Origin: PVC group bacterium
GTDB lineage: Bacteria > GCA-001730085 > JADFSZ01
Direction: 5' to 3'
NCBI GenBank assembly: GCA_022560555.1
Contig: JADFSZ010000069.1
Location: forward strand, 1 to 8,647
Length of the DNA: 8,647 bases
Below the pieces are notes generated by a model. The model did not search any database and had not been told where the DNA came from. It saw only the letters and a program-made list of their open reading frames with translations. The translations under genes and the position numbers were made by a program. Of the stretch, positions 1 through 8,647 are shown in pieces. Each line of letters begins with the position of its first letter. Position 1 is the stretch's first letter.

Positions 1-35
1 TTAGCTGGCTTTCACTTGGAGCACTTAAAGGGCGG

Positions 36-587
36 ATGTCTTTTGCGAAGAATTTGTTTTCAAATCAATTTCATCGTAAAGACACACAAGCGTTTAGTAT
101 CCGCTCCGTTAACAATATGATGACCATCGTTGTCGTGGCTCTGGCGGGATTTTTGATTATGAATATTGCGACCGCGCTGATGAATATGGGAGGGGGAAGG
201 ATGTTTAAGGTGAAATCTGTTTCGGGCGGAACAACACTTGCGTATGACATCAAGGGGGGATTTGTTAAACCCTTGAACGGGATACTTTTGAAAATCCGCG
301 GTCGGGACATTTTTAAGATGGGGGAATTAAAGAAGTCTCAGACTCAGGAAGCCGTCGCGGAAGAACCTAAGGAAGATCCTCGCGCCAAAGCGTTAGAGGC
401 GGTCAGTCATCTCCGGCTCGTCGGGATATCCTGGTCAAGCGATCCCGACGCGATGATCGAAGACACAAAGGCTGTACGAACGTTTTTTGTCAAGACGGGC
501 CAAAAAATCGGGAAGGTGACCATCGAAGCTATTTTTAAGGATAAGGTTATTTTAGAAGTCCTAGGACAGGAAGTCGAGCTCAAATGA
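36..587 (+). CDS. Secretin-associated bitopic membrane protein, PilP/GspC-like (183 aa)
   Basis: ATG at 36. The protein has a short N-terminal cytoplasmic segment, one hydrophobic helix (MMTIVVVALAGFLIMNIATAL) and an E/P/K-rich linker. Its C-terminal beta-rich module (LRLVGISWSSDPDAMIEDTKAVRTFFVKTGQKIGKVTIEAIFKDKVILEVLGQEVELK) has the pattern of the secretin-binding domain of PilP/GspC. The stop overlaps the secretin start (ATGA, 584-587). The frame stays open back to base 3, so a start outside the window cannot be excluded. Confidence 0.55.
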   Translation: MSFAKNLFSNQFHRKDTQAFSIRSVNNMMTIVVVALAGFLIMNIATALMNMGGGRMFKVKSVSGGTTLAYDIKGGFVKPLNGILLKIRGRDIFKMGELKKSQTQEAVAEEPKEDPRAKALEAVSHLRLVGISWSSDPDAMIEDTKAVRTFFVKTGQKIGKVTIEAIFKDKVILEVLGQEVELK

Positions 588-2365
588 ACCGAACGCGGAC
601 ATATGTTTTTCTCTTGTTTTTATTTTCCTTTTTGGAATTCTGTTCCTTGGGAATGTCGCAAGATTTTTATGGTGATGAATTTGTTATGGATAATCCCATT
701 GATCAAGAAGAGGTGGCTGAAGAAATGCCTTTGGCCGGTATGGAGCAGGATATCACGCTTGATTTACGCAACATAGAGATAGTGGATGCTTTAAAATTTC
801 TAGCCACCAAGGCCGGGATTAACATTATCACTACCAAAAAAGTCAGCGGGCGGGTCTCTTTTATGGTGGAACATGTCAAAGTGAAAGATATTTTTGACTT
901 GATGTTGAGAAGCAATGAACTCGCGTACGCGAAACAGGGAAATATCTATAATGTAATGACAGAAGGTGAGTACAAGGTTCTTTTTGGAGAAAGATTTTCG
1001 GATATCAGACAGGTCAAAACATTCCGATTAAAATACGCGATCCCTGAGCAGGCCTTCACATTGCTCGATACATTAAAAAGCTCGATCGGACGTGTGCTTG
1101 TGGAGCCGGATTCCGGCACGGTTCTGATCATGGACACGCCGGAAAAAGTGATTGAAATCGAACGGGCTTTAGCGACACTGGAGCAGAGAAATCTTGTGAA
1201 AGTAATCAAGCTGAACTATGCCAACGCTAAAGATATTGAAGAGCAGTTAAAACCACATCTGGACGGCAAAAAAGTCGGAACCATTCGGTCGGATGAACGG
1301 TCGAATCAAGTGATCATTCAGGCCTTGCCGGGACGCATGCTCGAAATTGAAATGCTTATCGCTAAATTGGATGAAAAAACTAAACAAGTGTTGATCGATG
1401 CTAAAATCATTAAAATCGGTCTTTCGGAAACAAATGAACGCGGGATCGAATGGGACGGATTGTTTGAAATGGGCCGTCAGTACGGCCTCAATTATCTCGG
1501 GTCCACCCCGTTTGGAGCCATTCAGGCCGCCGGTGATGCATTTCGAACGCGCACAGACGCTTTTAACGATGGCGGTGCGCAAATCGGACAATTTCCTTCA
1601 AGCGGCTTCTCCAACAATTTTGGGGGCCAACAAATTAGACCCGGACAGATCCACGTCGGAATCGTTGATGAAAAGATCGATTTTGATGTGTTGATTAAGT
1701 TTTTGCAGACCATCGGAAACACGCAAATTCTTTCCAATCCAAAACTTGTTGTGACCAATAACCAGGAAGCCCGGATTCATGTCGGGGAACGTCAGGCGTA
1801 TATTACGTCTACCACAACGACCGGGCAATCAACGTCTACGGTTTCCGAAGAAGTGACATTTGTGGATGTGGGGATTCAATTATCCGTGATTCCCACCATC
1901 AACGATGAAGGTTTTATCACGCTTAAGGTGAAGCCTGAAATTTCCAGTGTGATTTCGACTCTGATCACTCCCAGCGGAAACCAAATCCCGATTATCGACA
2001 CATCTACGGCGGAAACAACGGTTATGGTAAAAAGCGGGGTAACCGTTGTGATCGGCGGATTAAGACGGGATGAAAAAACCGAAGTTACGGATCAAGTGCC
2101 TTTTCTGAGCAAGATTCCGTTTTTAGGATTTTTCTTTAAGCAAACCAAGGTTGTGGATCAGCGAACCGAACTTCTTGTGCTGTTGACGCCTTATATTATT
2201 GACGGTGAACATCTTATTTTAGGGGATCCGCGGGATTATGACTTCGGAGCCACCGGGGGGAAAAAATACGCCGAATATACGGCTATAACGGACGATAGTG
2301 ACTATGTAGGGCCTTTAGACAGGCCTGAAGATCGTATTAAGTCTTATCGGGAGTATTCGGAATAA
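584..2365 (+). CDS. Outer-membrane secretin, PilQ/GspD family (593 aa)
   Basis: N-terminal signal peptide (MNRTRTYVFLLFLFSFLEFCSLGMS). An N0-like domain is present (ITLDLRNIEIVDALKFLATKAGINIITTKKVSGRVSFMVEHVKVKDIFDLMLRSNELAY). Two secretin-N type repeats follow (VKTFRLKYA...IERALATLE and VKVIKLNYANA...IAKLDEKT). The C-terminal secretin core is canonical (ILSNPKLVVTNNQEARIHVGERQAYI...VDVGIQLSVIPTINDEGFITLKVKPEISSV...TAETTVMVKSGVTVVIGGLRRDE...VPFLSKIPFLGFFFK...RTELLVLLTPYII). Confidence 0.92.
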   Translation: MNRTRTYVFLLFLFSFLEFCSLGMSQDFYGDEFVMDNPIDQEEVAEEMPLAGMEQDITLDLRNIEIVDALKFLATKAGINIITTKKVSGRVSFMVEHVKVKDIFDLMLRSNELAYAKQGNIYNVMTEGEYKVLFGERFSDIRQVKTFRLKYAIPEQAFTLLDTLKSSIGRVLVEPDSGTVLIMDTPEKVIEIERALATLEQRNLVKVIKLNYANAKDIEEQLKPHLDGKKVGTIRSDERSNQVIIQALPGRMLEIEMLIAKLDEKTKQVLIDAKIIKIGLSETNERGIEWDGLFEMGRQYGLNYLGSTPFGAIQAAGDAFRTRTDAFNDGGAQIGQFPSSGFSNNFGGQQIRPGQIHVGIVDEKIDFDVLIKFLQTIGNTQILSNPKLVVTNNQEARIHVGERQAYITSTTTTGQSTSTVSEEVTFVDVGIQLSVIPTINDEGFITLKVKPEISSVISTLITPSGNQIPIIDTSTAETTVMVKSGVTVVIGGLRRDEKTEVTDQVPFLSKIPFLGFFFKQTKVVDQRTELLVLLTPYIIDGEHLILGDPRDYDFGATGGKKYAEYTAITDDSDYVGPLDRPEDRIKSYREYSE

Positions 2366-2379
2366 AAGGGGAGTTTTTT

Positions 2380-3585
2380 ATGCGGAATAAAAAAGAAAAA
2401 ATGGGTATCATGATTTTAGGTCTATTGTTCTTACCTCTTGTGTTTTCCATGCTGCAAACTCACAGTCTCTTTGGCGAATGGGAATACACTGTTTTCGCTC
2501 AAAATGAAGGCCCGGATGGTGTCGAGCCTGACTCTGTCAGGGCCGCTCCTGAGTACAAAGATCTTATGAAAGAGAATATTACGCTCAAATCTGAGTACGC
2601 AGAACTGCAAAAAATTTACGCGGCCGTACAAGAAAGCGAAGAGTATGTCGCTCAATCGTCAAACATGACCCAACTTGTTACGGAAAACCAAAGCCTTAAG
2701 ACGCAGTTTGATGAACTCGTTGACAAGTACGAGAATCTGGAAAAAGACCGCAACAATATTTTGATTCAGACAAAGCGTTTATTGGAGGAAAAACGAGAAG
2801 TTCGCGATTTAGAAGCGGAACTCGCAAGCTTCAGACAAACCAATGAAAGTCTATTGTCCGCCCAAGAGGATGATCATATGCAGGACTTGAAATGGCAGGA
2901 TGAAATTAAAGAGCTGGAACGCGCGCAAGCCGAATTAACCAAGGAGAGAGATTATTATCAGGAATCGCTTGATAAGGTCAAGAAAGGGACCGCGATTAAA
3001 GAGCTTAAAGCAAAGTTAAAGACATTGGAAAAAGAGAGCCGAAAAACGATATCTTCGCTCGAAAAGGAGAAGAAGAATCTTTTTAAGGATTTTAAGCAAA
3101 CAAAATCTGAGTATCATAAAGTTCTGACCGCGAAAACAGACGCGAAATTAGCCGTCGAAGATTTGAAAGAAAAGCTTGACGATGCCTATAGAAGATTGGA
3201 AGACGCCGTGAATAAGAATATTGCTTTGGAAAAACATATTGAGAAAATTCCTGAGAAGTTTACCGAAATCGCGCGGCAAAATCAGACTCTTGTCAAAGAT
3301 ACGTCCGAGATGCATTACAATCTCGGGGTTTTTTACACTAAGAACCGGGAGTACAAGCGGGCCATTAAAGAATTTGAACAGACGATCGATATCATGCCGG
3401 ATGATGGCCATGCCCACTTTAATTTGGGATACATCTATGCTGAATATTTGGTAAATCGTCCGCAGGCCATCAAACATTTTCGTCAGTACTTGAGATTGGC
3501 AAAAAGCGGTGATGATGACGCGGATTGGGTCAAAAAATACTTGTTAATGTGGGAAACATACGAAGGAATTCCGGCCTCAAAGTAG
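2380..3585 (+). CDS. Signal-anchored/secreted coiled-coil protein with C-terminal TPR repeats (401 aa)
   Basis: A GGGGAG Shine-Dalgarno at 2368-2373 lies 6 nt before the ATG at 2380. The N-terminus has a basic n-region followed by a hydrophobic helix (MGIMILGLLFLPLVFSML). About 250 aa of heptad-like E/K/L/Q-rich sequence follows (LQKIYAAVQESEEY...LEKHIEKIPEKF). The C-terminus carries TPR-like repeats (MHYNLGVFYTKNREYKRAIKEFEQTIDIMPDDGHAHFNLGYIYAEY...AIKHFRQYLRL). Confidence 0.75.
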   Translation: MRNKKEKMGIMILGLLFLPLVFSMLQTHSLFGEWEYTVFAQNEGPDGVEPDSVRAAPEYKDLMKENITLKSEYAELQKIYAAVQESEEYVAQSSNMTQLVTENQSLKTQFDELVDKYENLEKDRNNILIQTKRLLEEKREVRDLEAELASFRQTNESLLSAQEDDHMQDLKWQDEIKELERAQAELTKERDYYQESLDKVKKGTAIKELKAKLKTLEKESRKTISSLEKEKKNLFKDFKQTKSEYHKVLTAKTDAKLAVEDLKEKLDDAYRRLEDAVNKNIALEKHIEKIPEKFTEIARQNQTLVKDTSEMHYNLGVFYTKNREYKRAIKEFEQTIDIMPDDGHAHFNLGYIYAEYLVNRPQAIKHFRQYLRLAKSGDDDADWVKKYLLMWETYEGIPASK

Positions 3586-3678
3586 TTTCTCCGGCGGGAA
3601 AGTTATTAAAAAATCAGATTGAATATGAACCCATTCGCGTACGCTTTATATAAGAGTAACGTGAAAGGCTGTTTTTTT

Positions 3679-4236
3679 ATGCGTATAAAGCTTGTTTCGA
3701 TTGCCCTCGCTCTGTTCCTGCTCATCGCGGCATGGCCCCCTGAGGCCGATGCCATGAAGCGAAGAGAAAGAAAAGTCCGCTCAAAATCCTCCGGCAAGTC
3801 CTCTCTGGTTCTTCTTGTGACTCTTGAGAAAGATGAGGTTAAAAAAGGGGATTCGATTCAACTGAATTTTATTCTTAAGAACAAAGGGCCGGAAGACGTA
3901 ACCATCAATAAGCGCATGCATCTCAATTCTAAGGAAAGCCTTAAAAAATATCGCGAACTCTTTTTAGACGTTGTAGGACCATCGGGCGAAGAGCTGCCCT
4001 GTAAAGTAAATACTGAAAAAGGATATCCCAAAACAGATGAGTTTGTTCTCCTTGCCGCGGGCAAAGAGTATCCGGCGGACCGCCCCCGATATATCCAGCG
4101 TTTTTTTGATTTTGACAAGCCTGGTGTCTATAAAATCAAAGCCACTTATCACAATATGTATGGGAGCGAAATCGGTCTGAAAACGTTTACGGGAAAAATT
4201 GAATCTATTGTGCTGACTTTGACGGTTATTGAATAA
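3679..4236 (+). CDS. Small secreted protein of unknown function, predicted beta-sandwich-like (185 aa)
   Basis: The ORF-track start at 3619 is a TTG. The ATG at 3679 gives a textbook signal peptide (MRIKLVSIALALFLLIAAWPPEADA). The mature part alternates polar and hydrophobic residues in the manner of Ig/CARDB-like folds (LVLLVTLEKDEVKKGDSIQLNFILKNKGPEDVTI...GVYKIKATYHN...IVLTLTVIE). I recognise no family. Confidence 0.65.
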   Translation: MRIKLVSIALALFLLIAAWPPEADAMKRRERKVRSKSSGKSSLVLLVTLEKDEVKKGDSIQLNFILKNKGPEDVTINKRMHLNSKESLKKYRELFLDVVGPSGEELPCKVNTEKGYPKTDEFVLLAAGKEYPADRPRYIQRFFDFDKPGVYKIKATYHNMYGSEIGLKTFTGKIESIVLTLTVIE

Positions 4237-4237
4237 A

Positions 4238-5782
4238 ATGAAAAAACGGTCGTTGGTATATACGTGTATTATTATGTCGCTGTTGTCCTGGGGGCCGGTG
4301 GGCTTAGCGTCTCTCGGAGCCGAGGACGCCCCGGATTTGAAAAAATATGCCGGTGAGGCCTTTGGAAAAAAAATCACGAACAGGGAATTTGCTTATCACT
4401 ATAGGACCGCGGCGATTTTCACCAGATCCGGCAAGGAAGATCGAACGGAGGAAGAAACCAGGGCGGAAGCGTGGCAGAATTATGTTTACCTGAAAGAGGC
4501 GAAAGAGATGGGATTTACCATTAGCCCCGAAGATCTGAAGAGCGAGCTTAAACGTCTTATGGCTCTGAAAAATGTTGAGTACGGTACGGAGAATTACCAT
4601 CAGATTGTACGTAATCAATTTCAGGAGAGCCCGGAAGATTTTGAAAGAAGGATCGAAGATCTTATGATTGTGAACCGGTTTTTAGCGGAAAAATCCAACC
4701 CCGATATTACGGTGACCGAGGCTGAAATGCTTCAAAAATTTCTCAATCAATACAACTCTTTTGAAAGTGAATACCTCCTCTTTGAAGACCGCGCCGAAGC
4801 GGAGGATTTCCATGCGAGGGTAAAAAAAAATCCCCGTCTATGGAAAGACACATGGGATGAAAAAAAGCCGCTCGGCCAAAAGGGGGGTTCCTGGATCAAT
4901 ATCATGAGTTTGGAGGCTTTGATTGATTTATGGAAGATCCCAAAAGACGATGCCTATCGGATCCTGAGTCATGAACCGGGCGAATTTATTGTTGCGAAAC
5001 TCATTTATGGGGATGTGGTGTTTCGCCTATTAAATACGCGCAAAGCTGATATGGAAAAGTATACGGAAAAAAAGCAGGATTACTACAAAGACATGCTTTT
5101 GGGTATAAAGAAACGTAAGCAGGTTCAGGGATACTTCGATGACCTTCTAGAGCGGGCCCAACACCGTGATTATTGGACAGAAAATGAAGAACAAAAAAAG
5201 CGTGAGCTATTGAAAACAAAAGATTTAATTGCCCTCGAAACGAACCATGGTATAATACACGTCAAATTATTTGTCGATGCGGCTCCTTTAGCCTGTGAAA
5301 ATTTTATCGGCCTCGTTGAAAAAGGGTATTTTGACGGGATCATCTTTCATCGTGTGATCAAAGGTTTTATGATCCAGAGCGGTGATCCAACGGGAACAGG
5401 CCGGGGGGGAGATTCTATTTGGGATATTCCTTTTATAAATGAGACGAGTGAGGACCTTTTGTTTGATCGGCCGGGCCTTTTAGCCATGGCGAATTCAGGA
5501 GCCAACACTAATAAGAGTCAGTTTTTTATCACGACAAGGAAAGCCCTTCATCTGAACGGCAGGCACACAATATTTGGTGAAGTCATCGCCGGGTATTCTG
5601 TGGTAAAAGAGATAGAGGGAGTTGAGACCGGTAAAAGTGACAAGCCGAAGGACGAGCAAGTCATTGTCAAAGCCTACATAGGCGATCTGTCAGAAGAGGC
5701 AGAGTTAAGGCTTGCCGGTGAAGAGGAATTTGAAAAAGCTGAAGAAGAGGAGGCGCTGACACATGATGAAAAAAATCAGTAA
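4238..5782 (+). CDS. Periplasmic chaperone/PPIase fusion: SurA-N/PpiD-like domain + cyclophilin-type peptidyl-prolyl cis-trans isomerase (514 aa)
   Basis: The ORF-track start at 4229 is a TTG. The ATG at 4238 lies 1 nt after the upstream TAA (4234-4236) and gives the signal peptide MKKRSLVYTCIIMSLLSWGPVGLASLGA. The N-terminal ~330 aa is helical and resembles SurA_N/PpiD (ITNREFAYHY...EAWQNYVYLKEAKEMGFTISPEDLKSELKRL...FERRIEDLMIVNRFLAEK). The C-terminal ~160 aa is an unmistakable cyclophilin (FHRVIKGFMIQSGDPTGTGRGGDSIW...LLAMANSGANTNKSQFFITT...LNGRHTIFGEV). The catalytic R, F, Q, N, Q-F and H positions are present. The protein ends in an acidic tail. Confidence 0.9.
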   Translation: MKKRSLVYTCIIMSLLSWGPVGLASLGAEDAPDLKKYAGEAFGKKITNREFAYHYRTAAIFTRSGKEDRTEEETRAEAWQNYVYLKEAKEMGFTISPEDLKSELKRLMALKNVEYGTENYHQIVRNQFQESPEDFERRIEDLMIVNRFLAEKSNPDITVTEAEMLQKFLNQYNSFESEYLLFEDRAEAEDFHARVKKNPRLWKDTWDEKKPLGQKGGSWINIMSLEALIDLWKIPKDDAYRILSHEPGEFIVAKLIYGDVVFRLLNTRKADMEKYTEKKQDYYKDMLLGIKKRKQVQGYFDDLLERAQHRDYWTENEEQKKRELLKTKDLIALETNHGIIHVKLFVDAAPLACENFIGLVEKGYFDGIIFHRVIKGFMIQSGDPTGTGRGGDSIWDIPFINETSEDLLFDRPGLLAMANSGANTNKSQFFITTRKALHLNGRHTIFGEVIAGYSVVKEIEGVETGKSDKPKDEQVIVKAYIGDLSEEAELRLAGEEEFEKAEEEEALTHDEKNQ

Positions 5783-6485
5783 ATCGACCGGTTTCGTATT
5801 AACAATTCTATTTGGCTTGAACATGGCCGTTTCCGGCCTATATGCGGCCGAAAAAGAAGATGAGGCCGCAAAGGCTAAGAAAGCCGCGCAGGAAAAGAAG
5901 AGGGAAATGATCCAAGAGGCCAAAGATAGCTTTAATAATACGGATTGGGCCATTAAGCTGATTCCGACAGGAGAGGATAGAGAAAGCAGAAAGGAAGAAG
6001 AAGATATTCTGCATTTTTCCGGATACAAATTCAGGTCCGACAAATTGATTAATGAGACTTTTAAACCCACCAATTACACGGTCCGCCTTAAGGGTAAGGA
6101 TGGGTCCCGCGTCATATGGGAGACCATGCAAACGAGTGAAAGCAAAGGAGTCGCGTTTTGGCGGGGAGAGTTCCAAAAAGATGGTAGTGTGCAGGGTGTT
6201 CTCTCATGGCATGTGAGTGATGATGACAGGAGGGATTATTCTTTTTCAGGTGAAAAGACAGTCATTGTTGAAGAAGTGCCAACGGAAGAGCCTGCTGAGG
6301 GGTCTGAGTCCGGCGAAGAGCTTATCACTGAGTCTGTCGTTGAGGCTGGTACGGATGTTCCAGAGGTTGTAACAACTGAAGCCGAGGCCGAAGCAGCCAT
6401 AGAAGTAGAAGAAACCCCGGCCCCGAAAGAAGTTGAAAAGAAGGAGCCTGCTTCTAGAGAAAGGCGAGGTCGTAGAAAATATTGA
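5763..6485 (+). CDS. Secreted protein of unknown function with acidic low-complexity C-terminal region (240 aa)
   Basis: A GAGGAGG Shine-Dalgarno at 5747-5753 lies 9 nt before the ATG at 5763. The start overlaps the upstream gene by 20 nt. Signal peptide: MMKKISKSTGFVLTILFGLNMAVSGLYA|AE. A compact central domain follows (WAIKLIP...ILHFSGYKFRSDKL...VIWETMQTSESKGVAFWRGEFQKDGSVQGVLSWH). The C-terminus is an E/T/V/P/A-rich acidic tail ending in the basic RERRGRRKY. Confidence 0.7.
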   Translation: MMKKISKSTGFVLTILFGLNMAVSGLYAAEKEDEAAKAKKAAQEKKREMIQEAKDSFNNTDWAIKLIPTGEDRESRKEEEDILHFSGYKFRSDKLINETFKPTNYTVRLKGKDGSRVIWETMQTSESKGVAFWRGEFQKDGSVQGVLSWHVSDDDRRDYSFSGEKTVIVEEVPTEEPAEGSESGEELITESVVEAGTDVPEVVTTEAEAEAAIEVEETPAPKEVEKKEPASRERRGRRKY

Positions 6486-6545
6486 TATGATGTATGATCA
6501 TGCTTGTTGTTAATTTTTAAGTCATTTACCATTAATAGTTTATTC

Positions 6546-6574
6546 TTGACATATTCACGCAACTTGCCTATATT
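6546..6574 (+). promoter_or_regulatory. Near-consensus sigma70-type promoter (-35 TTGACA, 17-nt spacer, -10 TATATT)
   Basis: TTGACA lies at 6546-6551. An exact 17-nt spacer follows (6552-6568), then TATATT at 6569-6574, which matches TATAAT at 5 of 6 positions. The upstream ~50 nt is AT-rich and UP-element-like. The predicted start is near 6581-6582, at the foot of a GC-rich 5' hairpin (AGGCCT 6584-6589 pairs with AGGCCT 6603-6608). Confidence 0.6.
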
Positions 6575-6611
6575 ATACGCGATAGGCCTGGGTCTTCTGA
6601 TAAGGCCTTAG

Positions 6612-6638
6612 TTTCCGATGAGTCAAGCTCATCGGAAA
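6612..6638 (+). other. Array hairpin HP1: perfect 11-bp stem, 5-nt loop
   Basis: TTTCCGATGAG (6612-6622), loop TCAAG, CTCATCGGAAA (6628-6638). It is followed by TA and then ATGCAC. Confidence 0.8.
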
Positions 6639-6699
6639 TAATGCACGAGCTACTTGGGCAGCCGGTTCGGGAGAAACTGCGCTTCTCAAACACCTAATG

Positions 6700-6724
6700 T
6701 TTAGAAGAGCCGAGCTCTTCTAAA
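6700..6724 (+). other. Array hairpin HP2: perfect 11-bp stem, 3-nt loop, stem sequence unrelated to HP1/HP4
   Basis: TTTAGAAGAGC (6700-6710), loop CGA, GCTCTTCTAAA (6714-6724). It is followed by ATT and then ATGCAC. Confidence 0.8.
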
Positions 6725-6809
6725 ATTATGCACGAGCTTATCAGGTTCCAGGCTCATGTTGAAATCATGCACAAGCTTATTGGGCAACAATTTCGGGAGG
6801 ACGCCTGGA

Positions 6810-6837
6810 TTTCCGATAAGCTGGCGCTTCTCGAAAA
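6810..6837 (+). other. Array hairpin HP3: imperfect stem with 10 of 12 positions paired, 4-nt loop
   Basis: TTTCCGATAAGC (6810-6821), loop TGGC, GCTTCTCGAAAA (6826-6837). The mismatches are T6817/C6830 and C6813/A6834. It is followed by CC and then ATGCAC. Confidence 0.6.
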
Positions 6838-6881
6838 CCATGCACGAGCTTGGTGGGTTCCAGGCTCGGGGGGACGCCTTA

Positions 6882-6908
6882 TTCCCGATGAGACCAGCTC
6901 ATCGAAAA
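6882..6908 (+). other. Array hairpin HP4: 7-bp perfect core (6886-6904) with U/A extension
   Basis: CGATGAG (6886-6892), loop ACCAG, CTCATCG (6898-6904). TT at 6882-6883 can pair with AA at 6907-6908 across a 2x2 internal loop. It is followed by TA and then ATGCAC. Confidence 0.7.
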
Positions 6909-7028
6909 TAATGCACAAGCTTATTGGGCAACAAGTTCGGGAGGAACGCTGCTTGACCATTTTCATTTATAACTTATAATTCTTTTACCGTCATAGCCAT
7001 CAACTCATGGACATTTCTACCTTATCTC

Positions 7029-7982
7029 ATGAACTTTTCTGTGATTATTCCTGTTCGAAATGGGGCCGATACCTTGGCCTTGTGCTTGGAGGCCCTCAAC
7101 AAGATCCGGGGCGATAAAACAGAAATCATCGTTGTAGATGATTTAAGCCAAGATGCTTCTGTGGAGATCGCCGAGGGTTTGGGCGTCCGCGTGATTTCTC
7201 TTACGACAAGACACGGATCCGCCGCCGCCAAAAATATCGGGGCCAAAGAGGCCACAGGGGAGATTCTGTTGTTTGTTGACGCGGATGTAGTGGTTCCTAA
7301 AAACACATTTGATCTTATTTTGCAAACCTTTCGTCAAAACCCAGCCATAGCGGCTATTACGGCAAATGTTTCGTTAGAAATCCCTTTCAAGGGGTTTTTC
7401 ACTCAATACAAAAATTGTTATATGCATTTTGTGCTTTCACGGGCCAGCTCTCAGGCGGATTTCTTTTATGGCTCGCTCATCGCGATACGAAGGAAGGAAT
7501 TTATGCTTTTTGACGAAAAAACGCGCGTGGAGGACACAGAGCTCGGTCAGCGTTTGCATAAACAGGGGAAATCCATTTATCTGGACCATCAATTACAAAT
7601 CACTCATTTAAAACAATACTCCCTTATCAGCGCCTTGAAAAATGATTTTTTTGTTCCCTTTTGGTGGAGCCGCACATATCTTTTACATAGCGGAATAAAA
7701 GATGTTGTCCGGAAGAAAACTTTTGCTCATGCGCGTCTCACACAACTCTTCAGTATTTTAGCCGTGTTTTTGACGTGTTTGTTTTTCGTGTTGGCTATGG
7801 AACAACTCGGGAGTTTATTTTTATTGGCTTTTGTCATTTGTAACGCGAGATTTTTCGGATTTCTTATGAGACAAAGAGGCTTTGTGTTTTTTTTAAAAGC
7901 TCTTGTCTGGACCTTTATCGATCAAATTGTGATGGGATTCGGGGTTATGGCAGGGATGATATATTTTAAGGTTAGAAAATAG
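7029..7982 (+). CDS. Family-2 (GT-A fold) glycosyltransferase with C-terminal transmembrane helices (317 aa)
   Basis: The N-terminus carries the GT2 signature (FSVIIPVRNGADTLALCLEAL...EIIVVDDLSQDASVEIA...GSAAAKNIGAKEATGEILLFVDADVVV, with DAD as the DXD motif). The C-terminus is hydrophobic (LTQLFSILAVFLTCLFFVLAM...LFLLAFVICNARFFGFL...LVWTFIDQIVMGFGVMAGMIYF). Size and topology resemble polyprenyl-phosphate glycosyltransferases (GtrB/ArnC/DPM1-like), but the substrate cannot be inferred. Confidence 0.88.
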   Translation: MNFSVIIPVRNGADTLALCLEALNKIRGDKTEIIVVDDLSQDASVEIAEGLGVRVISLTTRHGSAAAKNIGAKEATGEILLFVDADVVVPKNTFDLILQTFRQNPAIAAITANVSLEIPFKGFFTQYKNCYMHFVLSRASSQADFFYGSLIAIRRKEFMLFDEKTRVEDTELGQRLHKQGKSIYLDHQLQITHLKQYSLISALKNDFFVPFWWSRTYLLHSGIKDVVRKKTFAHARLTQLFSILAVFLTCLFFVLAMEQLGSLFLLAFVICNARFFGFLMRQRGFVFFLKALVWTFIDQIVMGFGVMAGMIYFKVRK

Positions 7983-8017: not shown

Positions 8018-8647
8018 TTATTTATCAATCATTTGGAGATGCTTTTCGATATCATACTGCCCGGACTCTGACCTTGTTTCCTTAAACACTTGTTTTTTAT
8101 ATCGCATGGTTATTTCAATTTTCTCAATAGCCGTGAGTTTTTCCTCTTCGGATAAGTCAGAATTATTTTTGATTTTTTCGATTTTATTTTGATCCGCTTC
8201 CGTCATCAGACTTGCCATATATTCCATACTTTTATTCCAAAGATCCCTCTGCCGCGCATTAAACTCCCCTGTATGGGCTGATGTGTCCGGCCCCTCATTT
8301 TCTCCATATTCTTTTTTTAGCTTCTCCATGACACTCCCGGCTAGATTCTTAACATCGCTCACATAGTCTTCTTGGGAGATAACAACAATATGTTCCGGAA
8401 TTTCAAATAATGATTCATCAAGTTCGATATTTTCCTGTATTTCCAGGACCTCTGTCAAAAGATACCTGTTCGCAATTCGAATTTCCTCCTTCAGCAAGAG
8501 ATTATTCCAAACCCAATATTTCGAATCTTTCGACTCATAAACATGACAAGAGCGGCCAAAAAAATCATCTTGTACAATCTGTCGGCCAGTGTCAATTTGA
8601 CGGTAGCCTAATCCAAGTTTATAGGTGCTTTCAGCCGGAGTATATGT
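8018..8647 (-). CDS. Hypothetical protein, 5'-truncated by the window edge; possible LolA/DUF4412-like beta domain plus acidic helical C-terminus
   Basis: The ORF-track start at 8497 is a TTG. By my own translation the minus-strand frame stays open all the way to base 8647 (...TYTPAESTYKLGLGYRQIDTGRQIVQDDFFGRSCHVYESKDSKYWVWNNLLLKEEIRIANRYLL...), so the gene continues beyond the window. The motif KYWVW...LLLKEE...VLEI...IELDESLFEIP resembles the C-terminal strands of LolA-like lipoprotein-carrier folds. The last ~100 aa are E/K-rich and helical. The TAA stop lies at 8018-8020. Confidence 0.65.
   Translation of the reverse strand, partial: TYTPAESTYKLGLGYRQIDTGRQIVQDDFFGRSCHVYESKDSKYWVWNNLLLKEEIRIANRYLLTEVLEIQENIELDESLFEIPEHIVVISQEDYVSDVKNLAGSVMEKLKKEYGENEGPDTSAHTGEFNARQRDLWNKSMEYMASLMTEADQNKIEKIKNNSDLSEEEKLTAIEKIEITMRYKKQVFKETRSESGQYDIEKHLQMIDK

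Follow-up and report, generated by a model that had tools for sequence, protein, structure and literature searches.

The sole sizeable intergenic gap (6486-7028) in an 8,647-nucleotide contig of Candidatus Omnitrophota, analyzed here over its whole length and hereafter called the window, carries an array of about 370 bases (6581-6952, + strand) in which a hairpin-forming mosaic module of ~71 nt is present five to six times. The window is the entire contig of a metagenome-assembled genome (MAG) held at NCBI as 'PVC group bacterium', in which the array is unannotated; its cyclophilin gene (MCH7504886.1) assigns it to the Omnitrophota, a phylum of abundant, uncultured organisms with very small cells. 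The array lies between the gene for a 240-aa protein, which terminates an operon encoding a T2SSC-like protein, a secretin, a TPR protein and the cyclophilin, and a gene for a family 2 glycosyltransferase (GT2; MCH7504888.1). We read it, with a probability of about 0.45, as a lineage-specific intergenic mosaic repeat, comparable in kind to the bacterial interspersed mosaic elements (BIMEs) and neisserial intergenic mosaic elements (NIMEs), that gives the GT2 mRNA a long structured leader. To our knowledge, almost nothing has been learned about non-coding elements in the Omnitrophota; were the array to prove only BIME- or NIME-like, it would be the first such mosaic hairpin array in the phylum and a useful strain marker.

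Repeat organization, fold and promoter-like sites

The 11-mer ATGCACRAGCT, termed the head, is present in five exact copies at 6641, 6728, 6767, 6840 and 6911 of the + strand, with no further copy in the window, exactly as an earlier reading of this DNA by eye (the first-pass annotation) had placed them. With one mismatch allowed, 0.14 copies would be expected, and five were reached in 0/200 shuffles. The head is invariant across the window copies, its sole variant, ATGCACGGGCT, being found in the extra module of a related strain (L100) described below. A repeat search recovered a five-copy family with spacings of 87, 39, 73 and 71 nt, together with hairpin families, and Tandem Repeats Finder reported a period of 71 with 2.5 copies and a score of 207. 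The longest exact repeat inside the array is ~25 nt.

Unit bodies are of two types that follow one another in the order A, B (truncated), A, B, A, and this alternation, along with the one deleted and one expanded unit that had been proposed, is visible in the sequence. Identities over head plus body are 34/35 between u3 and u5 and 27/35 between u2 and u4. The 39-nt u2 (6728-6766), consisting of head 2 and a truncated B body, resembles u4 minus the segment between two GCTC repeats, and the 87-nt u1, which opens with head 1 (ATGCACGAGCT, 6641-6651, located by motif scan), is expanded by a remnant tail and a second hairpin type. The remaining units are u3 (A type with head 3, 6767-6839), u4 (B type with head 4, 6840-6910) and u5 (A type with head 5, 6911-6952), the last of which is without a hairpin tail. 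Unit-like sequence begins before head 1, at ~6586, where a partial unit tail, u0 (GCCTGGGTCTTCTGATAAGGCC, 6586-6607), is similar to the u3 tail at 6803-6824 and folds into an AGGCC/GGCCU stem.

The fold of the module was assessed on an alignment of six copies, to which the window contributed four and strain L100 two, using RNAalifold and explicit pair counting. Each module comprises, in order, a long hairpin (SL-H), a shorter stem (SL-B) and a purine-rich GGGRGGA(C) stretch. The long hairpin has 16 pairs, which extend from the GCC upstream of its U-rich arm as far as the AUGC with which the next head starts; the head is therefore in part the 3' foot of the hairpin. The U-rich and A-rich sequences previously described as flanking the hairpin are indeed present, but they belong to the stem itself, which reaches as far as the GCC:AUGC pairing with the next head. 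Four copies of the hairpin are found: copy 1 (6605-6644), whose core UUUCCGAUGAG/CUCAUCGGAAA is a perfect 11-bp helix and whose outer stem pairs GCC with the AUGC of head 1; copy 2 (6692-6731; UUUAGAAGAGC/GCUCUUCUAAA), which differs from copy 1 by compensatory pair changes; copy 3 (6803-6843); and copy 4 (6876-6914). Six pairs of this helix are altered on both sides and yet still paired, examples being C-G to A-U, U-A to A-U and, in the outer stem, UA/AU to GC. Over both helices, 89.8% of cells are paired versus 82.3% in shuffles (0/500), and pairing falls to 26-47% when the partner is shifted by 1-3 columns. The strong hairpins noted by eye were recovered as repeat and hairpin families, and the compensatory changes among their copies indicate that the hairpin is a maintained structure; these changes fit a structure-dependent element on either strand.

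In the shorter stem, CRAGCUU of the head pairs with (A/G)GGCUCG or GGUUCG, and the changes are one-sided only. It lies at 6646-6669 in u1, where CGAGCU of the head pairs with GGUUCG, again with changes on one side only, at 6772-6795 in u3, at 6845-6868 in u4, where it reaches 9 bp, and at 6916-6939 in u5. The purine stretches, each of which shares one base with the end of this stem, read GGGAGAA in u1 (6669-6675), GGGAGGA in u3 (6795-6801), GGGGGGA in u4 (6868-6874) and GGGAGGA in u5 (6939-6945); ensemble folding leaves these four GGGRGRA stretches mostly unpaired in two units and paired in two. The fold of the whole array has z-scores of -6.2 (+ strand) and -7.0 (- strand), the hairpin being palindromic and so folding equally on both, and wobble asymmetry (9 G.U cells versus 10 C.A cells) favours neither strand.

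The array is enclosed by two promoter-like sites on the + strand, which are the best such matches of the whole 8.6-kb window on either strand. The distal site, P1 (6546-6574), reads TTGACA-17-TATATT and has a predicted start at ~6581, ~5 nt before the first unit-like sequence. This is the near-perfect promoter singled out by the first-pass annotation; it scores 11/12 and shares the top rank in the window with the proximal site, P2 (TTGACC-16-TATAAT, 11/12; 6953-6980), which had gone unmentioned and lies at the right edge of the array. P2 is identical in strain L100 and has one change, in the -35 element, in strain L107. For P1, the related contigs stop short, L083 ending at the window equivalent of 6496 and L100 beginning at that of 6637.

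No terminator-like site was found on either strand in 6300-7200, so that a transcript from 6581 would run into the GT2 gene (7029-7982, + strand), and the array most likely forms part of the 5' leader of the GT2 mRNA. Relatives have canonical intrinsic terminators. In the related contig L103, a 26-bp inverted repeat without mismatches, bordered by A/T runs (12248-12315), directly follows the last operon gene and constitutes a bidirectional terminator-like hairpin; the window is without a counterpart of it after the 240-aa gene, making read-through from the operon into the array possible.

On the reading favoured here, a ~71-nt module consisting of the long hairpin, the short stem that uses the head and the purine-rich stretch would have been duplicated, deleted and recombined in tandem, the amplification having taken place where the secretin operon meets a GT2 gene that is a recent neighbour. 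Situated between the distal P1 and the proximal P2, the array would most probably reach the RNA as a long, highly structured 5' leader to GT2, and transcripts reading through from the operon may include it as well. If it has an effect, this would be exerted in cis at the RNA level, with stable hairpins slowing exonucleases or creating processing sites, as repetitive extragenic palindromic (REP) sequences and BIMEs do, and at the DNA level the array would behave as a variable-number tandem repeat.

Occurrence in related strains and in sequence collections

Only three other contigs, L100, L107 and L083, belong to the species-level lineage of the window and extend to the array, and in two of them, from other samples, it precedes the same GT2 gene. 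L100 (ENA ERZ23499143), which starts at the window equivalent of 6637, differs at 5/324 aligned array bases, four of these five substitutions falling in u2, and its GT2 coding sequence is 97.5% identical. It carries one extra 72-nt module, which combines a type 2 hairpin with a truncated B unit, in keeping with the ongoing unequal recombination suggested by the first-pass annotation. This module differs from its paralogue at 8/75 positions (10.7%), a divergence which indicates that it is old and was lost in the lineage of the window. A mismatch-free block of 294 nt between the window and L100 covers u3-u5 and also P2, the 5' untranslated region (UTR) and the start of the GT2 gene; mismatch-free runs of ~180-210 nt are found elsewhere in the same alignment. 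L107 (ENA ERZ23486734) starts at the window equivalent of 6897 and keeps u5 and P2, and the head and body of u5 are the same in L100 and L107. L083 ends at the window equivalent of 6496, 11 nt past the operon. All three are short-read contigs from other samples, and all break at or in the array. Since the exact internal repeats are short (no more than ~25 nt), these breaks suggest that populations are structurally heterogeneous at the array, and short-read assembly seems to fail here partly on account of the array.

Relatives at ~55-63% cyclophilin identity keep the secretin operon, and all are without the array and without a GT2 neighbour; neither the head motif nor the covariance model built from the modules (R1) gave any match at their loci. 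The nearest other GT2 homologue, 45% identical, is located in an unrelated glycosyltransferase cluster. No genome was found with both flanks but without the array, a case that the first-pass annotation had named as a refutation; strictly taken it does not arise, because those relatives in which the array is missing have lost the GT2 neighbour too. The array is confined to the lineage that has this gene junction.

Searches for known families left intact the earlier statement that the array resembles none of them. Rfam 15 gave no match in the window at the gathering threshold, and at E<=10 the interval 6450-7050 returned only three chance snoRNA/HIV matches outside or at the edges of the array, while ARAGORN found no tRNA or tmRNA gene. 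Phage, plasmid and defence-protein searches matched nothing, and blastn against phage and plasmid collections was likewise without a match. Among GTDB representative genomes, where this species is perhaps missing, the 82 matches to a two-head pattern were all attributable to chance, and blastn with the window was blank. In JGI metagenomes a single-unit pattern gave ten matches, none array-like, eight being in one coding gene from related samples and two in unrelated contigs. Three patterns run against IMG/VR gave 0, 0 and 26 matches, none homologous. Translation of the array's open reading frame (ORF), compared with 5.8 billion clustered proteins and 1.84 billion representatives, retrieved only the L100 array and one spurious 3209-aa repeat protein.

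The covariance model R1 finds only the array itself, in the window and in L100, and nothing in ~130 kb of Omnitrophota loci. No copies outside the array were detected in the window, L083, L100, L106, L107 or those ~130 kb, the coverage of the host genome for dispersal being 8.6 kb. Scattered copies, which the first-pass annotation had named as evidence that would tell against an RNA, were thus found in no searchable collection.

Several likenesses were pursued and rejected. The IMG/VR matches proved, in the two contigs read (L114 and L132), to be 12-nt coding repeats, GCTAATGCACAA, in which the head motif is coincidental; they lie inside an apparent gene, and one frame reads Ala-Asn-Ala-Gln. 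The same 12-nt head spacing recurs in L113, L116, L117 and L126, which are unrelated to the array. Resemblances seen by eye to a hammerhead ribozyme (CGAUGAG...CGAAA), a c-di-GMP-I aptamer, a sigma-54 promoter and attC found no model support and have a broken consensus, and a riboswitch was dismissed on the same Rfam results at both thresholds. A CRISPR array would fit the period of 71-73, but the 'repeats' are 65-95% alike, the 'spacers' are mutually homologous and no cas genes are present in the window.

Comparison with known systems and rival explanations

The array is not a member of the BIME, NIME or mycobacterial interspersed repetitive unit (MIRU) families, and its likeness to them is one of kind only. 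REPs are elements of 20-40 bp with a GTAG or CGTC tag; a genome has over 100 of them, and their orientation alternates inside BIMEs (PMC2817692; PMC3733652). In common with REPs and BIMEs the array is intergenic, stands at an operon end, combines stable imperfect palindromes and linker motifs in a mosaic cluster and varies between strains; its four hairpin copies are stem-loop-forming imperfect palindromes, with a stem longer than that of a typical REP. REPs and BIMEs are moreover transcribed with their neighbours and act on mRNA 3' ends. The array differs from them in that its module is ~71 nt long with two stems and no tag, every copy has the same orientation and the array is known from a single locus. 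Its hairpins are preceded by (A)CGCC or AGGCC, CTAC occurring once only, in u1. The window contains no cognate gene for a REP-associated tyrosine transposase (RAYT); a RAYT-like gene is present at the equivalent locus of relatives, accompanied by a different palindrome.

NIMEs, which occur at many loci, contain 20-bp dRS3 inverted repeats (ATTCCC-N8-GGGAAT) flanking RS units (PMC1797815). Shared with the array are tandem units of 50-150 bp with short inverted repeats, a place beside surface-structure genes, and strain-dependent number and length, a variation expected for recombination substrates; syntenic arrays differ in repeat number between the window and L100 just as NIMEs do between strains. 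The array nevertheless has no sequence relation to NIMEs, its inverted repeat is a hairpin of 2x11-17 bp, and no recombinase link is known here. The dRS3 motif is absent from the array, so that the likeness is architectural only. The MIRU variable-number tandem repeats are dispersed over ~40 loci as tandem intergenic units of ~50-80 bp that are oriented with genes and vary in copy number between strains; they contain small ORFs that are translationally coupled, and no long hairpin dominates them. The array resembles them as a tandem intergenic repeat oriented with the genes and variable in copy number, and differs in being dominated by hairpins.

What speaks for a mosaic repeat of this general kind is the mosaic structure itself, with its deleted, expanded and chimeric units, and further the old extra module of L100, the contigs that break at the array, its absence from the relatives that keep the operon and from the collections searched, the compensatory changes in the hairpin, the lack of a terminator between P1 and the GT2 gene, and the RAYT-like gene and REP-like palindromes at the same locus in relatives. 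Other observations weigh against it. The units have been met at this one locus only, and dispersal, which defines REPs, BIMEs and NIMEs, would have to be assumed; all units run in the same direction, unlike those of BIMEs, and a GTAG or CGTC tag is wanting; and a near-consensus promoter ~7 nt upstream of the first module is unexpected for a passive repeat. Finally, the unit retained in L107 differs from that of the window at 1/49 positions and the adjoining non-repeat DNA at 11/48 (p=0.002), which hints at constraint, although this contrast depends on a hyper-diverged flank and the unit is not better conserved than the third codon positions of the GT2 gene (p=0.49). Constraint on the units is accordingly no more than suggested by these alignments, and there is no clear purifying selection, given that the mismatch-free block shared with L100 extends beyond the array and that the L107 contrast holds only against the hyper-diverged flank.

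A dedicated non-coding RNA, the idea of the first-pass annotation, would be a P1-driven transcript of ~380 nt with four to six two-hairpin modules that titrates or scaffolds an RNA-binding protein through the head or the GGGRGGA motif, or is cut into unit-length RNAs. P1 matches the consensus at 11/12 positions, is the best site of the window and ends ~7 nt before the first module, and in relatives a genuine riboswitch is driven by a promoter of the same type; the array folds strongly (z -6.2), its hairpin covaries, it is kept before the GT2 gene in three strains, and the 11-nt head is invariant though the sequences with which it pairs are not the same in A as in B units, suggesting recognition by sequence. 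The sponge RNAs CsrB, RsmY and RsmZ provide a model for such a molecule, in that a dedicated promoter precedes repeated hairpin modules with a GGA-containing purine motif over ~350-400 nt. The array shares this succession of promoter and GGA-bearing hairpin modules and a similar total length, but its GGA is in or beside the stem rather than in loops and is not consistently exposed in the ensemble, and it has neither a terminator nor conservation across genera. A transcript of this kind would be without a terminator or other defined 3' end, and its conservation would be limited to one species-level lineage; the minus strand folds as well, wobble asymmetry is neutral, degenerate and chimeric units are tolerated, no Rfam family matches, CsrB/Rsm included, and no gene for a partner protein is adjacent. 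The free-standing 'multi-module RNA' of the first-pass annotation is left unsupported by the missing terminator, the equal folding of both strands, the neutral wobble and the inconsistently unpaired purine linker, and we consider a dedicated RNA unlikely. Slightly more doubtful again is its elaborated form, an undescribed modular RNA of ~380-450 nt with a dedicated promoter and four to six modules (AUGCACRAGCU plus GGGRGGA) that would sequester a regulator or be cut to ~71-nt units and evolve by module gain and loss. A promoter-driven modular RNA would, if real, represent a new RNA class with a module number that varies between strains.

A neutral local minisatellite, in which a hairpin-forming piece was amplified by slippage or unequal crossing-over, has no function and leaves both promoters to the GT2 gene, is unlikely to the same degree as the dedicated RNA. 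It would agree with the change in copy number between strains, the deleted and chimeric units, the restriction to one lineage and the lack of any measurable excess of conservation over synonymous sites. It agrees less well with six stem pairs changed on both sides and still paired among paralogous copies, with a head that is invariant in every window copy and varies only in the extra module of L100, and with the sharp drop in conservation at the end of u5 in L107. The invariance of the head, its constant direct orientation and its spacing of 71-73 bp in the regular part, between two promoters, also recall an iteron, centromere or operator-like array in which a regulator binds the 11-bp head every ~7 helical turns. 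Spacings of 87 and 39 are tolerated, however, most of the unit is a covarying hairpin, pointing to a folded single strand and not to duplex recognition, and no gene for a DNA-binding protein is adjacent; such a DNA-level function appears improbable. The ATG with which the heads begin and the TAATG stop-start overlaps in which two hairpins end raise the prospect of a chain of translated micro-ORFs, an 83-aa ORF (6728-6979) and an 18-aa ORF starting at heads and a 61-aa ORF having been predicted by a gene caller in L100. This is very improbable, as the unit lengths of 87, 39, 73 and 71 break the reading frame, ORF ends vary between strains, and the translation has no Pfam match and no relatives beyond the L100 array and the one spurious repeat protein. 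The succession of promoter, tandem repeats and downstream gene is, lastly, reminiscent of toxIN loci, and P1 supplies the -35 and -10 elements seen there (PMC3401426); as with ToxI, which has ~5.5 repeats of a 36-nt unit, a constitutive-looking promoter stands directly before tandem RNA repeats. The units of the array are ~71 nt long, however, no terminator hairpin is present, the gene in the place of an endoribonuclease toxin is an ordinary GT2, and neither a PADLOC model nor a ToxN-type Pfam family matches the GT2, the convergent protein of at least 209 aa or the 240-aa protein. A type III antitoxin is the least probable of the explanations considered and is already largely refuted.

The locus in relatives and the flanking genes

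The position that follows this conserved operon is occupied by the array in one lineage and, elsewhere, by a riboswitch cassette, a RAYT-like gene and the gene for a giant protein. The simplest arrangement is that of L087 and L105, where a GT9 gene follows the last operon gene within ~35 nt or past one small ORF. In L084/86, L103/104 and L102, the last of which is rearranged, a gap of ~480 nt holds a sigma-70-type promoter, a cyclic di-GMP (c-di-GMP)-I riboswitch and a canonical terminator, and is followed by a RAYT-like gene of 418-422 aa and a giant protein. The riboswitch (RF01051, 51-59 bits) was identified at 11443-11530 in L084, 12461-12550 in L103 and 18884-18987 in L102; the copies in L084 and L103 stand downstream of a TTGACT-17-TATACT promoter and are followed by a canonical terminator. 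Genes for a PAS kinase and an EAL response regulator precede the operon, and the whole locus thus appears to be linked to c-di-GMP.

In three divergent relatives a palindrome of ~15-17 bp, AAAGTGCC(A/T)GGCACTTT, brackets the promoter-riboswitch-terminator cassette on both sides at a spacing of 257-306 nt (11325-11338 and 11582-11598 in L084; 12323-12339 and 12616-12632 in L103; 18736-18753 and 19042-19059 in L102). The window has no such palindrome, which may be a REP-like element or serve as an operator. An 8/11 likeness of the head to the palindrome flank in L084 is at chance level and was discounted. The RAYT-like gene was located at 11646-12914 in L084, 7464-8732 in L086, 17480-18736 in L102, 12723-13991 in L103 and 11312-12580 in L104, and the N-terminal ~140 aa of its 418-422-aa product match the REP-associated tyrosine transposase NF047646 (E 2e-19) with 69.9 bits, short of the curated cut-off of 80. 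It is followed by a gene of ~145 aa and by the giant protein, which ranges from 950 to more than 3600 aa and runs off the loci. The fixed position of the RAYT-like gene suggests a domesticated rather than a mobile Y1 transposase, and its combination with REP-like palindromes indicates that hairpin-repeat systems occur in this phylum.

Downstream of the array, the region of L107 at 50-131, corresponding to 6946-7028 of the window, is diverged, the stretch between u5 and P2 differing at 4/7 bases and the GT2 5' UTR at 7/41 with a 1-nt deletion, compared with 3.1% for the GT2 gene itself. The spacer and -10 element of P2 are intact despite the diverged surroundings. The stretch is either a local hot spot or a segment that was imported.

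For the flanking genes the first-pass annotation was right, the secretin operon ending at 6485 and the GT2 gene, the downstream neighbour in all three array-carrying strains, starting at 7029. Exact look-ups of the 240-aa and GT2 proteins as translated from the window gave no record, their start codons having been placed differently in the deposited versions, and the contig was recognized by way of protein cluster members. An order conserved across the Omnitrophota (window 1-6485; L084-L087 and L102-L105) comprises an AAA ATPase, a T2SSC-like protein, the secretin, a TPR protein, a protein of 170-205 aa, a SurA_N-cyclophilin fusion and an acidic protein of 226-273 aa that belongs to no known family. 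In the window this last protein is the 240-aa one (5763-6485, + strand), whose gene is not followed by a terminator and whose homologues close the operon in L084, L087, L103 and L105; apart from the cyclophilin domain, the last two operon proteins have no Pfam, NCBIfam or PADLOC match. Converging on the GT2 gene is an open frame of at least 209 codons on the - strand (8018-8647), which runs off the end of the window; its product has only a weak match to DUF1542, and the gene is also present in L100 and L107.

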